From IMG/VR virus record IMGVR_UViG_2778260996_000004: a stretch of 21,068 bases of DNA. One strand, written 5' to 3'. The position numbers were made by a program, and so were the translations under genes. This document shows, one piece after another, positions 7,213 through 11,579 of this stretch. A model generated the notes under the pieces. It searched no databases and had not been told where the DNA came from. It was given only the letters and a program-made list of their open reading frames with translations. Position 1 is the first letter of the stretch. Each line of letters begins with the position of its first letter. The DNA is from a virus. Its lineage: Duplodnaviria > Heunggongvirae > Uroviricota > Caudoviricetes.

Positions 7213-7421
7213 ACCAGAATGATATCGAAGCCATGATTCAGCGTTATACGGAAGCTGAAATGGCGGTGCTGGACGGAAAATCCGTCACCTTTAATGGTCA
7301 GCAGATGACCATGGAAAACTTATCTGAGATCCGGCAGGGACGGCAGGAGTGGGAGCGCCGCCTTGCGGCTCTGATTACACGACGACGGGGGCATCCCGGG
7401 TACCGGCTGGCGAGGTTCTGA
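7209..7421 (+). CDS. head-tail joining protein, gpW-like
   Basis: 70 aa from ATG 7209 (GGAGG at 7198-7202, 6-nt spacer); C-terminal RRRGHPGY resembles the lambda W C-terminus; start overlaps the terminase stop, stop overlaps the portal start (TGATG). Confidence 0.6.
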   Translation: MNQNDIEAMIQRYTEAEMAVLDGKSVTFNGQQMTMENLSEIRQGRQEWERRLAALITRRRGHPGYRLARF

Positions 7422-8929
7422 TGGCAATTCTTGATGATGTGATTGGCGTTTTTTCACCAGGATGGAAAGCGGCAAGGCTGCGTTCCCGTGCGGTGATCCA
7501 GGCTTATGAGGCCGTAAAAACGACGCGGACACACAAAGCCCGGCGGGAAAACCGAACTGCCGACCAGTTAAGCCAGTACGGGGCCGTGTCGTTACGTGAG
7601 CAGGCCCGTTACCTTGATAACAACCACGATCTGGTTATTGGTGTATTTGACAAGCTGGAAGAACGGGTGGTGGGGAAAAACGGGATTATTGTCGAGCCAC
7701 ATCCGGTATTACGCAATGGGGCCATTGCCCGTGATCTGGCAGCGGAGATACGCACCCGATGGAGTGAATGGTCTGTCAGCCCGGAAGTCACCGGGCAGTT
7801 TACCCGTCCGATGCTGGAACGTCTGATGTTGCGTACCTGGCTGCGCGATGGTGAGGTGTTTGCCCAGATGGTTTCCGGGCGCATAAACAACCTGACGCCT
7901 TCTGCCGGTGTTCATTTCTGGCTGGAGGCGCTCGAGCCAGACTTTATTCCCATGACCAGTGATGAGAGCAACAGGCTGAATCAGGGCGTGTTTGTTGATG
8001 ACTGGGGGCGTCCCGAAAAATATCTGGTGTATAAAAGTCGTCCCGTATCCTGGCGGCAGATGGAAACCAAAGAAGTGGATGCAGAGCGAATGCTGCATCT
8101 TAAATTTGTTCGCCGTCTGCACCAGATGCGCGGGACGTCTTTGTTGTCCGGTGTGCTGATCCGCCTCAGTGCCCTGAAAGAGTATGAAGATTCTGAGCTG
8201 ACTGCAGCAAGGGTCGCCGCTGCTCTGGGGATGTACATCCGGAAAGGCGACGGGCAGAGCTATGAACCGGATGGTAATGGCAGCAAGGAGAATGAACGCG
8301 AGCTTACCATTCAGCCAGGCATTATTTACGACGATCTGAAACCCGGCGAAGAAATCGGAATGGTGAAGTCGGATCGTCCCAATCCTAACCTTGAAACTTT
8401 TCGTAATGGTCAGTTGCGTGCCGTGGCGGCGGGCAGTCGTCTGAGTTTTTCCAGTACGGCACGCAACTATAACGGCACTTACAGCGCCCAGCGTCAGGAG
8501 CTGGTTGAATCCACAGATGGCTACCTGATCCTGCAGGACTGGTTTATTGGTGCCGTCACCCGCCCGATGTATCGTGCCTGGCTGAAACAGGCTGTGGCAT
8601 CCGGTGTTATCAGGCTACCCCGCGATCTTGACCGTTCTTCACTGTATACCGCGGTGTATTCCGGACCGGTGATGCCGTGGATTGACCCTGTTAAGGAGGC
8701 TGAGGCCTGGAAAATCCAGATTCGTGGTGGAGCGGCGACAGAATCAGACTGGGTACGTGCTGGTGGTCGTAATCCGGATGATGTCAAACGTCGGCGCAAG
8801 GCCGAAATTGATGAAAACCGCAAGCTGGATCTGGTATTTGATACCGATCCGGCCAGTGATAAAGGAGGCAGCAGTGCCGCAACGAAACGACAGGAGCCGC
8901 AGCACACCGACGACCAGTCCGAAGAATAA
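7421..8929 (+). CDS. portal protein
   Basis: 502 aa from ATG 7421; position after terminase and W; size and layout typical of lambda-family portals. Confidence 0.85.
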   Translation: MAILDDVIGVFSPGWKAARLRSRAVIQAYEAVKTTRTHKARRENRTADQLSQYGAVSLREQARYLDNNHDLVIGVFDKLEERVVGKNGIIVEPHPVLRNGAIARDLAAEIRTRWSEWSVSPEVTGQFTRPMLERLMLRTWLRDGEVFAQMVSGRINNLTPSAGVHFWLEALEPDFIPMTSDESNRLNQGVFVDDWGRPEKYLVYKSRPVSWRQMETKEVDAERMLHLKFVRRLHQMRGTSLLSGVLIRLSALKEYEDSELTAARVAAALGMYIRKGDGQSYEPDGNGSKENERELTIQPGIIYDDLKPGEEIGMVKSDRPNPNLETFRNGQLRAVAAGSRLSFSSTARNYNGTYSAQRQELVESTDGYLILQDWFIGAVTRPMYRAWLKQAVASGVIRLPRDLDRSSLYTAVYSGPVMPWIDPVKEAEAWKIQIRGGAATESDWVRAGGRNPDDVKRRRKAEIDENRKLDLVFDTDPASDKGGSSAATKRQEPQHTDDQSEE

Positions 8930-10901
8930 TTCTTGGTTCAGGATGCAGGCTGGTCACCAGAGTGACGCGGATATTTATATTTATGACGAGATTGGTTTCT
9001 GGGGTGTTACAGCGAAGCAGTTTATCAGTGATCTGAATGCACTGGGCGATATCACCCACATTAATCTCCATATCAATTCACCGGGTGGCGATGTCTTTGA
9101 AGGCATCGCCATTTTTAATGCACTGAAAACACATGGTGCGTCCATTACCGTTTATGTCGACGGTGTGGCGGCGTCAATGGCGTCGGTCATTGCGATGGTG
9201 GGAAACCCGGTCATTATGCCGGAAAACACCTTCATGATGATTCATAAACCATTTGGCTTTACGGGCGGTGATGCGGAGGACATGCGCACCTATGCCGACC
9301 TGCTCGATAAGGTTGAGGCGGTTCTGTTACCCGCTTATGCACAGAAAACCGGGAAAACCACCGATGAAATTGCTGCCATGCTGGCGGATGAGACCTGGAT
9401 GTCCGGTGCCGAATGTCTGGCACATGGATTTGCTGATCAGGTGACGCCAGCCGTTAAGGCAATGGCATGTATTCAGTCAAAACGTACAGAGGAATTTAAA
9501 AAGATGCCGGAATCCATTCGAAACATGATTACTCCGCCACGCAACAGTGCTCCACGCGTACAGGATGATGAACCTGCAGCCTCCCGGACGCCAGTGCAGG
9601 CAGCAGCACCCGTGGTGGATGAAAACAGCATCCGTGCGCAGGTACTGGCAGAGCAAAAAGCGCGTGTAAACGGTATTAATGATCTGTTTGCCATGTTTGG
9701 CGGGCGTTATCAGACGCTGCAGGCTCAGTGTCTTGCCGATCCTGAATGTTCGCTGGAGCAGGCCCGCGAAAAGCTGTTGAACGAGATGGGGCGCGAGTCC
9801 ACGCCATCCAATAAAAATACCCCGGCTCATATTTATGCCGGTAACGGTAATTTTGTGGGGGACGGGATTCGCCAGGCGCTGATGGCGCGTGCCGGATTTG
9901 AAAAAACCGAACGTGATAATGTCTACAACGGGATGACCCTGCGTGAATATGCCCGTATGTCACTGACTGAACGGGGTATTGGGATTTCCAGTTATAACCC
10001 GATGCAGATGGTCGGTGCGGCGTTCACACACAGTACGTCTGACTTCGGTAATATTCTGCTGGATGTTGCGAACAAAGCCATTCTGCAGGGCTGGGAAGAT
10101 GCCCCTGAAACCTATGAACAGTGGACGCGGAAAGGTCAGTTGTCTGATTTTAAAATTGCCCATCGTGTGGGTATGGGGGGCTTCAGTGCTCTGCGTCAGG
10201 TGCGTGAAGGGGCGGAATATAAATACGTCACCACCGGAGATAAACAGGCCACTATTGCACTGGCGACCTATGGCGAGCTGTTCAGTATCACCCGTCAGGC
10301 CATTATCAATGATGATCTGAATATGCTGACCGATGTCCCGATGAAGCTGGGCCGTGCGGCGAAATCCACTATTGCCGATCTGGTTTATGCCATTCTGACG
10401 TCTAACCCGAAAATCTCCACAGATAATGTAAGTCTGTTCGATAAAGCGAAACATGCAAACGTACTGGAGAGCGCTGCAATGGACGTGGCATCGCTGGATA
10501 AAGCCCGCCAGTTGATGCGCGTTCAGAAAGAGGGGGAGCGTCATCTGAATATTCGTCCTGCGTTCGTACTGGTACCGACGGCGATGGAGTCTGTTGCTAA
10601 CCAGGTCATTCGCTCCTCAAGTGTCAAGGGGGCTGACATTAACGCCGGTATTATTAACCCGGTGAAAGATTTTGCGACCGTTATTGCAGAGCCTCGTCTT
10701 GATGATAACAGCCAGACCACCTTCTACCTGGCTGCGTCAAAAGGCTCCGATACGATTGAAGTGGCTTATCTCAACGGTGTGGATACGCCATATATTGATC
10801 AGATGGAGGGCTTCAGTGTGGATGGCGTGACAACGAAAGTGCGTATTGACGCCGGTGTCGCGCCAGTTGATCACCGCGGTCTGGTGAAATGTACGGCGTA
10901 A
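8874..10901 (+). CDS. prohead protease (ClpP/S14-type) - scaffold-like linker - major capsid protein fusion
   Basis: N-terminal ClpP-like region (IYIYDEIGFWG...INSPGGDV...MASVIAMVG), then a long C-terminal domain in the major-capsid position. Start ambiguous: GTG 8874 has a strong SD (AAAGGAGG 8861-8868) but overlaps the portal 3' end; ATG 8943 lacks an SD. Confidence 0.8.
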   Translation: MPQRNDRSRSTPTTSPKNNSWFRMQAGHQSDADIYIYDEIGFWGVTAKQFISDLNALGDITHINLHINSPGGDVFEGIAIFNALKTHGASITVYVDGVAASMASVIAMVGNPVIMPENTFMMIHKPFGFTGGDAEDMRTYADLLDKVEAVLLPAYAQKTGKTTDEIAAMLADETWMSGAECLAHGFADQVTPAVKAMACIQSKRTEEFKKMPESIRNMITPPRNSAPRVQDDEPAASRTPVQAAAPVVDENSIRAQVLAEQKARVNGINDLFAMFGGRYQTLQAQCLADPECSLEQAREKLLNEMGRESTPSNKNTPAHIYAGNGNFVGDGIRQALMARAGFEKTERDNVYNGMTLREYARMSLTERGIGISSYNPMQMVGAAFTHSTSDFGNILLDVANKAILQGWEDAPETYEQWTRKGQLSDFKIAHRVGMGGFSALRQVREGAEYKYVTTGDKQATIALATYGELFSITRQAIINDDLNMLTDVPMKLGRAAKSTIADLVYAILTSNPKISTDNVSLFDKAKHANVLESAAMDVASLDKARQLMRVQKEGERHLNIRPAFVLVPTAMESVANQVIRSSSVKGADINAGIINPVKDFATVIAEPRLDDNSQTTFYLAASKGSDTIEVAYLNGVDTPYIDQMEGFSVDGVTTKVRIDAGVAPVDHRGLVKCTA

Positions 10902-10924: not shown

Positions 10925-10944
10925 GGCCCGTAAGGGCTTTTTTT
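10925..10944 (+). terminator. weak intrinsic terminator/attenuator after the capsid gene
   Basis: GCCC-gtaa-GGGC stem followed by T7 tract, 25 nt after the capsid stop. Confidence 0.4.
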
Positions 10945-10987
10945 GTACCTGAAATCAGCCCCTGAACGGGGCTGTGCGGAGACAGTT

Positions 10988-11311
10988 ATGGCAAAGAATT
11001 TTGTAGAAGAAGGAAAAACGGTGGCGATTGTTGCCAGTGCAGCCATCAGCAGCGGAGACCTGGTGCAGGTGGGTGATGTTTTTGCGGTGGCGCTGACCGA
11101 TATTCCACAGGGTGAAACAGGCGACGGCCTGACCGAAGGTGTGTTTATGCTGCCTAAGCTGAAAACGGATGACATGAAAACGGGTAAGAAGGTTTATCTG
11201 AAGTCCGGAAAAGTTCAGCTGACTAACAGCGGCTCTGATCCGCTGGTCGGGGTTGTCTGGGCAGATGCCGGAACCAGTGCAGAAGAAGTGCCGGTAAAAC
11301 TCAATGTCTGA
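10988..11311 (+). CDS. small head-associated protein (107 aa), possibly DUF2190-like
   Basis: GGAG upstream of ATG 10988; position directly after the major capsid gene; Gly/Val-rich. Family assignment is from memory and weak. Confidence 0.5.
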   Translation: MAKNFVEEGKTVAIVASAAISSGDLVQVGDVFAVALTDIPQGETGDGLTEGVFMLPKLKTDDMKTGKKVYLKSGKVQLTNSGSDPLVGVVWADAGTSAEEVPVKLNV

Positions 11312-11579
11312 TCCCTTTTCCCGGCTGGCAGCGCGTATGGATGCGATCACGGTCAGAAAGATGGGAAAGACAGCCTCGATTAATGATGTCGATATGACTG
11401 TGATCCCGGGAGAAACACTGGCAGAGCTGAATGCTCTGTCCGGACCTGCGGTCTCTCTGGTGGTGTTTTCTTCGGGATACCGCCCACGGCGCGGGGATCG
11501 CGTTGTTTATGACGGACAACATTGGACGGTCACACGGCATGAACGCTTTAACGGTAAGCCAATGATCTTTATTGAGTAA
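11304..11579 (+). CDS. head-tail connector, FII-like
   Basis: 91 aa; sits where FII sits in lambda (before Z); RRGD motif similar to lambda FII; start overlaps the upstream stop (ATGTCTGA). Confidence 0.55.
   Translation: MSDPFSRLAARMDAITVRKMGKTASINDVDMTVIPGETLAELNALSGPAVSLVVFSSGYRPRRGDRVVYDGQHWTVTRHERFNGKPMIFIE

Follow-up and report, generated by a model that had tools for sequence, protein, structure and literature searches.

The fusion arrangement and a start inside the portal gene are both established in Gifsy-2-type and lambda-type head modules. [quoted passage not shown] 2010, Virology 402:355; NC_010393, 22471-24561) carries a ClpP-like protease, a central linker and the major capsid protein in one gene. 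The HK97 protease, gp4, is the product of a separate gene and is of a different family from the protease described here, which forms the upstream part of a single ORF with the capsid protein.

The window analysed here (the whole stretch of 21,068 nucleotides) belongs to a phage of the E. coli mEp460/cdtI group, with 99% nucleotide identity. Its fusion protein was 69% identical to the Gifsy-2 product over 668 aa, with the same three parts, and the gene order was shared as well: large terminase, small W-like gene, lambda-type portal, fusion gene, DUF2190 decoration gene and tail genes. The gene is the well-known fused head-protease/scaffold/coat gene of Gifsy-2-type lambdoid prophages.

Architecture and family of the fusion gene

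The genes and domains of the head module are listed below, with positions counted in the window.

7421..8929, + strand: portal gene, Phage_portal_2 (lambda-family portal), Pfam E 3.5e-82; its last 56 nt are shared with the fusion gene
8874..10901, + strand: protease/linker/capsid fusion gene, 675 aa plus stop; NF045540, PHROG 133 and Gifsy-2 homology
8964..9446, + strand: ClpP-like serine protease domain, aa 31-191; Pfam CLP_protease E 2.8e-36
9174-9176 and 9243-9245, + strand: catalytic Ser101 and His124, from alignment to solved ClpP structures
9507..9995, + strand: linker, presumed scaffolding (delta-like) region, aa 212-374, from the homologue alignment
9996..10889, + strand: major capsid protein domain, aa 375-672; Pfam Phage_capsid_4 E 8.6e-55, plus Mu-like_gpT
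10925..10948, + strand: terminator-like hairpin and T-run separating the capsid and decoration genes
10988..11311, + strand: separate decoration/cement gene (DUF2190); Pfam Phage_cement_2 E 3.6e-20

The portal start at ATG 7421 is the one annotated in mEp460, Ayreon and cdtI. The stop codon of the fusion gene lies at 10899-10901, giving 675 aa from GTG 8874 or 652 aa from ATG 8943. That one ORF holds a ClpP-like protease, a linker and the major capsid protein had been proposed in the preliminary description, and was confirmed by Pfam matches and by the NCBIfam model NF045540 ('ClpP-like prohead protease/major capsid protein fusion protein'), which scored 985.3 bits against a cutoff of 475 over aa 32-674; since this profile starts only at residue 32, it is silent on the choice of start. 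The protein also matched NF045542 (215.7 bits, cutoff 120) and PHROG 133 (1201 bits).

In the protease domain, the CLP_protease match reached 125.6 bits (cutoff 20.2). Aligned to solved ClpP structures, the AASM motif (Ser101) and the MIHxP motif (MIHKP in the window, His124) sit on the catalytic Ser and His, and both residues were invariant in an alignment of homologues. The candidates for the third catalytic residue are Asp172 and Glu173. Within the linker, conserved segments come after a variable spacer rich in Pro, Gln and Ala, and no Pfam family matched it significantly; it is presumed to be the scaffold by its likeness to Gifsy-2, HK97 and lambda Nu3. The capsid domain scored 187.3 bits for Phage_capsid_4 (cutoff 27) and 33.4 bits for Mu-like_gpT (cutoff 20.1), and from its sequence is presumed to adopt the HK97 fold. 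An AlphaFold2 model built on a shallow alignment (22 sequences, 75-96% identity) had a mean pLDDT of 35.6 and was unusable. The mEp460 and Ayreon records label the downstream hairpin a rho-independent terminator, and the gene behind it is labelled 'head decoration' or 'DUF2190 family protein' in relatives.

Of the 5426 complete E. coli genomes, 2075 (38%) contained matching DNA, and carriers of the gene include Stx- and Cdt-converting phages. PGAP names the product of the E. coli copies after NF045540. Alignment-based scans of viral and metagenome contigs returned only E. coli prophages of 98-100% identity, and these were used solely for a population check of 158 loci.

Initiation at the portal junction

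The following features lie at the junction of the portal and fusion genes.

8861..8868, + strand: Shine-Dalgarno sequence AAAGGAGG, 5 nt before GTG; read as K-G-G in the portal frame
8874..8876, + strand: GTG, most likely the initiation codon of the fusion gene; position and spacing kept in all Enterobacterales relatives, and used in RefSeq
8877..8921, + strand: variable basic N-terminal extension, aa 2-16, PQRNDRSRSTPTTSP, wholly inside the portal overlap
8922..8942, + strand: conserved motif K-N-N-S-W-F-R, aa 17-23, lost if the start is ATG 8943
8943..8945, + strand: ATG (Met24), in frame and without a Shine-Dalgarno sequence; start in the mEp460, cdtI and Ayreon GenBank records

Translation of the fusion protein most likely starts at GTG 8874, with ATG 8943 as the codon of an internal Met24; we put the probability of this reading, which is drawn from comparative sequence data, at about 0.88. 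The layout of the junction was as first described: the GTG has a near-perfect Shine-Dalgarno sequence, its form overlaps the portal 3' end by 56 nt (8874-8929, the portal stop being TAA 8927-8929), the ATG lies clear of the portal gene, 13 nt 3' of its stop, and the choice shifts the N-terminus by 23 residues, V/M-PQRNDRSRSTPTTSPKNNSWFR. Between 8874 and 8943 there is no further ATG, GTG or TTG. Folding of the region for RNA structure masking the Shine-Dalgarno sequence and GTG gave only a weak 4-bp hairpin (z-score -1.8, not significant).

Across 13 diverse Enterobacterales (about 68-78% aa identity), the Shine-Dalgarno sequence AAAGGAG[G/T]C and a start codon were kept at a fixed distance, the portal overlap ranging from 53 to 59 nt; in Sodalis the start codon at this position is ATG. 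The Shine-Dalgarno sequence and the GTG did not vary at all among 158 near-identical loci. Part of this conservation could be driven by the portal, because the Shine-Dalgarno sequence coincides with its conserved D-K-G-G motif. Existing records are divided. The GTG start is used by RefSeq/PGAP for the copy in E. coli JE86-ST05 (WP_001136589.1; 99.9% identical over 8700-9400) and in the Stx2d phage record LC567830 for a homologue of about 78% identity, and the ATG start is annotated in mEp460 (RefSeq NC_019716), Ayreon, cdtI and Providencia PSTCR8lys.

A homologue alignment had been suggested in the preliminary description as a test of the GTG start, with a uniform ATG start and no upstream conservation as the adverse outcome, and the opposite was found. 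The motif K-N-x-S-W-[FY] 5' of Met24 was kept in Enterobacterales, Pasteurellaceae, Pseudomonas and more distant relatives, and its codons varied as in coding sequence (TCT/TCC/TCG/TCA, TTC/TTT, AGG vs CGN). In many relatives a stop codon stands just upstream and the protein then begins M-K-x-W-[FY]-x-I, so that the protein always includes the motif. Conservation of the 23 codons was borne out for the last seven or so (KNNSWFR) and not for the first 16 or so, which encode a basic, low-complexity extension that varies among relatives in both sequence and length and is missing where the protein begins M-K-x-W-[FY]. In profile and tblastn comparisons, homology set in at residues 15-22 of the GTG form.

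Use of both starts, with a 675-aa protein as the main product and a lesser 652-aa one devoid of the W-F segment, is improbable. Both start codons were invariant in the 158 near-identical loci, and translational coupling offers a plausible mechanism for reinitiation after the portal stop, but the ATG is not conserved outside Enterobacterales and a conserved structural segment would be missing from the short form.

That ATG 8943 is the sole true start, yielding a 652-aa protein with no portal overlap, perhaps by reinitiation after the portal stop, is a shade less probable still. ATG is the commoner start codon, the portal stop is close by, most Enterobacterales retain the Met, and several GenBank/RefSeq phage records are annotated in this way. 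Against this, the ATG has no Shine-Dalgarno sequence, the family-wide motif would be removed, the 13 nt from the portal stop to the ATG evolve in a coding-like manner, and the codon at the Met24 position encodes Ile in Gifsy-2, Fels-1, Sodalis, Pseudomonas BR213a and most Pasteurellaceae relatives.

Starts further upstream were rejected. None of ATG 8778 (the start taken in the 707-aa P0003 cluster), GTG 8856 and the ATG/TTG near 8811 has a Shine-Dalgarno sequence, and relatives carry in-frame stops in this region, such as the one 13 codons ahead of the GTG in locus L016. At 8856 the ATG/GTG arises incidentally from the portal N-D/S-D codons, and several relatives lack it. A programmed +1 frameshift producing a portal-protease-capsid fusion, which would explain why the protease frame is open from 8673 within the portal gene (67 codons 5' of GTG) and why at least 10 database proteins of 1158/1159 aa join portal, ClpP and capsid, was likewise rejected as next to impossible: the frame switch is scattered among these proteins and therefore reflects random 1-nt deletions or sequencing errors and not a slippery site, and the upstream open frame is unconserved, with an in-frame stop 13 codons upstream in L016 and L022.

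With GTG 8874 as the start, the protease in the mEp460, cdtI, Ayreon and Providencia PSTCR8lys records is probably 23 residues short and has lost the conserved W-F segment, and a protease or polyprotein expressed from the ATG may misfold. The practical weight of this is annotation correction only, and the new content does not go beyond amending the mEp460, cdtI and Ayreon records, RefSeq already having the GTG. Virion proteomics would probably be unable to settle the start, since mature heads have presumably lost the N-terminal protease part, as is reported for Gifsy-2.

A candidate nested start at the protease/linker boundary

Two further features were identified inside the fusion gene.

9489..9493, + strand: candidate internal Shine-Dalgarno sequence GAGGA, 10 nt before ATG 9504
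9504..9506, + strand: in-frame ATG (Met211), candidate nested start at the protease/linker boundary, for a 465-aa scaffold-capsid product

Of the conserved internal Met codons, that of Met211 alone had an SD-like duplex in all 20 of 20 fused homologues, and synonymous-site conservation was seen at the SD-like motif. The Glu206 codon (-5 from Met211) was GAG in 17 of 17 sequences, against 30% GAG at ten other conserved Glu columns. GAGG/AGGAG was retained despite differing encoded amino acids (K-E, T-R, L-R, Q-E) in loci L278, L250 and L032 and in Pseudomonas. Non-fused ClpP-scaffold relatives had no nested start at the homologous position, where Ala or Ser is found, so that the internal ATG and its GAGG-type Shine-Dalgarno sequence were conserved in the fused lineage only.

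This pattern tentatively suggests, at somewhat less than even odds, a nested gene in which initiation at ATG 9504 behind GAGGA would yield a scaffold-capsid protein lacking the protease, the ratio of the two products determining how many copies of the protease each procapsid receives, as happens in lambda with Nu3, which is nested in C. If true, the nested start would add how such phages set their protease-to-capsid stoichiometry, and it is the sole potentially new element of the locus.

Proposed assembly model and comparison with Gifsy-2, lambda and HK97

In the proposed mechanism, GTG 8874 and the strong Shine-Dalgarno sequence in the portal 3' end would drive translation of a 675-aa head polyprotein, in which a ClpP-like (S14) prohead protease at the N-terminus is followed by a scaffold-like linker and, at the C-terminus, by the HK97-type major capsid protein. 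Met24 would then be the hydrophobic residue of a conserved W-F-x-[M/I] segment at the protease N-terminus. By analogy with Gifsy-2, HK97 and lambda, the polyprotein may build a procapsid on the portal, after which the protease may remove itself and the linker, and the mature capsid domain may expand before the separate DUF2190 cement protein binds.

In Gifsy-2 the fusion start also lies inside the portal gene, with an annotated overlap of 86 nt, but the start is an ATG, the N-terminal extension is different and longer, and Ile stands at the Met24 position.

In lambda, gene C likewise starts at a GTG inside the portal gene B, behind GAGGAGGAG with a 4-nt spacer, although the overlap is 20 nt compared with 56 nt in the window. 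The preliminary description had contrasted the fusion with separate lambda genes C, Nu3, D and E. This contrast holds for the joining of protease and capsid, since lambda E is a gene of its own with D lying between Nu3 and E. It does not extend to D, no equivalent of which has been absorbed, the decoration protein being separate in both phages (cement gene at 10988-11311 in the window), nor fully to C and Nu3, which are nested in one reading frame, so that protease is followed by scaffold in the same frame there too. The lambda C protein is an S49 peptidase, whereas the window protease is of the ClpP/S14 type; Pfam and NCBIfam gave no S49 family match in the fusion protein, only a weak hit to SppA_dom (22.3 bits, cutoff 155).

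As for HK97, the window capsid domain matches a phage capsid protein family, and the gp5 capsid protein has its own N-terminal scaffold-like region, which is cut off by the phage protease gp4. With this delta domain, gp5 is comparable to the 465-aa product that the fusion gene may encode from ATG 9504.

The protease-capsid fusion gene

The preliminary description had placed a ClpP-like prohead protease, a linker and the major capsid domain in a single ORF, with a GTG start inside the portal gene and a rival, non-overlapping ATG, and both the domains and the start region were recovered as described.

Features of the fusion gene and its neighbours (window coordinates unless given as aa of the 675-aa protein)
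ORF upstream of the fusion gene: lambda-family portal (Pfam)
8861-8868: Shine-Dalgarno sequence (SD) AAAGGAGG, 5-nt spacer to GTG 8874
8927-8929: TAA stop of the portal ORF; 56-nt overlap with the GTG-started fusion gene
8943: ATG in the protease frame, 13 nt 3' of the portal stop, without SD
9489-9493: GAGGA, SD-like, upstream of ATG 9504; spacing 10-11 nt, long for an SD
9504: in-frame ATG (Met211), preceded by GAGGA and placed exactly where protease and linker meet
10901: end of the fusion ORF; 675 aa (GTG) or 652 aa (ATG)
aa 31-191: Clp protease domain (Pfam)
aa 375-672: Phage_capsid_4 capsid domain (Pfam)
10988-11311: separate decoration gene, downstream (Pfam Phage_cement_2/DUF2190)

Ser101 and His124 matched the ClpP catalytic Ser and His in an alignment with solved ClpP structures. 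The domain matches show one ORF predicted to encode an intact protease, linker and capsid domain, followed by a separate cement gene, and the strong SD within the portal gene shows a site at which initiation would be independent and high-level. By analogy with Gifsy-2, HK97 and lambda, the linker would serve as a delta-like scaffold domain, and polyprotein and portal would assemble together to form a procapsid; the protease would then digest the linker as well as itself, and the mature capsid would expand and bind the decoration protein. Virion proteomics would therefore probably miss the N-terminus of the precursor.

A terminator-like GC hairpin with a T-run (10925-10948) lies between the fusion and decoration genes, within the expected single late operon; the mEp460 and Ayreon records call a rho-independent terminator. 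Phage records label the small ORF 3' of the decoration gene (11304-11579) 'minor tail protein' or 'head-tail joining protein FII-like'; PGAP's label for it, 'DNA breaking-rejoining protein', seems misleading given the head-tail joining position.

Choice of start codon

The protease frame was translated upstream in 80 related genomic loci and in phage loci. The motif K-N-x-S-W-[FY] just before Met24 (ATG 8943) was conserved in Enterobacterales, Pasteurellaceae, Pseudomonas and far more distant relatives, while its codons varied (Ser TCT/TCC/TCG/TCA, Phe TTC/TTT, Arg AGG versus CGC/CGT/CGG). Such changes are typical of coding sequence, and a start at ATG 8943 would leave the 13 nt that carry them non-coding. 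Many relatives have a stop codon directly upstream and begin M-K-x-W-[FY]-x-I (e.g. MKNRKWWDI, MNKWYKI, MKSWFSI, MKNWYSI), so that the W-[FY] segment is always within the protein. Moreover, Gifsy-2, Fels-1, Sodalis, Pseudomonas BR213a and most of the Pasteurellaceae relatives carry Ile in place of Met24, and their genes cannot start there.

In 13 diverse Enterobacterales prophages (~68-78% aa identity), AAAGGAG[G/T]C followed after 5-6 nt by a start codon was invariant, with GTG in 12, ATG in Sodalis, and portal overlaps of 53-59 nt; SD and GTG were both invariant across 158 near-identical loci. In profile and tblastn comparisons, similarity to other phage ClpP-like proteases set in at residues 15-22, counted from the GTG. 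Conservation upstream of the ATG, the check proposed earlier, was partial: of the 23 additional residues, just the final seven were conserved, and residues 2-16, a variable and basic extension, coincide with the portal overlap. No other start codon was found between 8874 and 8943, the upstream candidates 8778, 8811 and 8856 had no SD and their equivalents in relatives sit behind in-frame stops, and RNA folding around the start gave no significant structure. From these comparisons, GTG 8874 is very probably (about 0.88) the principal start.

A minor product from ATG 8943, e.g. by reinitiation after the portal stop, is improbable and found no support. The equivalent ATG is the annotated start in mEp460, Ayreon, cdtI and Providencia PSTCR8lys. 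A programmed frameshift joining portal to protease-capsid was rejected: inside the portal gene the reading frame of the protease stays open over the 67 codons that precede the GTG (open stretch within 8673-8929), and at least ten 1158/1159-aa portal+ClpP+capsid "fusions" are in the protein database, but these change frame at scattered positions, as expected of random 1-nt deletions or sequencing errors, and the open frame is not kept in relatives. Through that open frame, such errors yield spurious proteins in public assemblies (P0006-P0017, P0043 and P0070 among the database proteins; one deposited as 'phage portal protein').

RefSeq already has the correct start, GTG 8874: its PGAP annotation of E. 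coli JE86-ST05 (99.9% identity over 8700-9400) opens the gene at the GTG with an identical 56-nt overlap, and so does the record of Stx2d phage LC567830 for a homologue of ~78% identity. In a related group with an additional ATG (M-K-N-K-S-W-F), the records take that ATG. Four start codons are in use across records (8778, 8874, 8943 and this intermediate ATG), under product names as varied as 'head-tail preconnector protein Nu3', 'Major Capsid Protein', 'head maturation protease', 'protease/scaffold protein' and 'Clp protease ClpP'. What is gained is a corrected annotation of several phage records.

Candidate nested start at Met211

Met211 may be a nested start giving a 465-aa scaffold-capsid product. 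An SD-like duplex preceded it in 20/20 sequences (mean -6.2 kcal/mol versus background -1.7), these sequences being phylogenetically related. Among 16 conserved Met columns, only Met211 and Met137 had such a duplex in every Met-carrying sequence, and at Met137 the GGAGG lies just ~2 nt from the ATG and belongs to a conserved motif, GGDAEDM. At -5, the Glu codon (E206) was GAG in 17/17, against an average of 30% for the ten other conserved Glu columns, though E206 is the only conserved Glu preceding a GA codon and a codon-pair effect is possible.

GAGG/AGGAG was retained despite differing amino acids in relative loci L278 (AAG GAG), L250 (ACG AGG T) and L032 (TTG AGG) and in Pseudomonas (CAG GAG), and also in Providencia and Gifsy-2. 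Motif and ATG were kept, synonymous sites included, in fused homologues from Enterobacterales, Pasteurellaceae, Pseudomonas and marine Gammaproteobacteria; the feature was not found in the more distant fused homologues L253-L258. In non-fused ClpP-scaffold relatives the corresponding residue is Ala or Ser, so Met211 is not structurally required. The nested start is a testable hypothesis.

Comparison with known phages

Identity to the region was 99.0-99.6% for the E. coli phages mEp460, cdtI, Ayreon, Tritos and phi458, and ~78% for the head genes in several Stx-converting phages and in VT1-Sakai. Of 5426 complete E. coli genomes, 2075 contain matching DNA; PGAP names the gene there 'ClpP-like prohead protease/major capsid protein fusion protein'. 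The fusion protein matched NCBIfam NF045540 (985 bits; cutoff 475) and PHROG 133 (1201 bits), and was 69% identical over 668 residues to that of Gifsy-2, where gene order is the same and the gene was described in 2010 (Effantin et al. 2010, as summarised in PMC12315714). It belongs, as an ordinary member, to a known and very common family; given these matches, the non-lambda fusion is real yet previously known. Lambda D, listed earlier among the separate lambda genes, is not replaced by the fusion, since a decoration gene of its own follows. Nor is the start arrangement non-lambda: lambda gene C (start region at NC_001416 4400-4440) likewise starts at a GTG behind GAGGAGGAG inside portal gene B, with an overlap of 20 nt against 56 nt here, and lambda Nu3, nested in C, is the analogue of the candidate 465-aa product.
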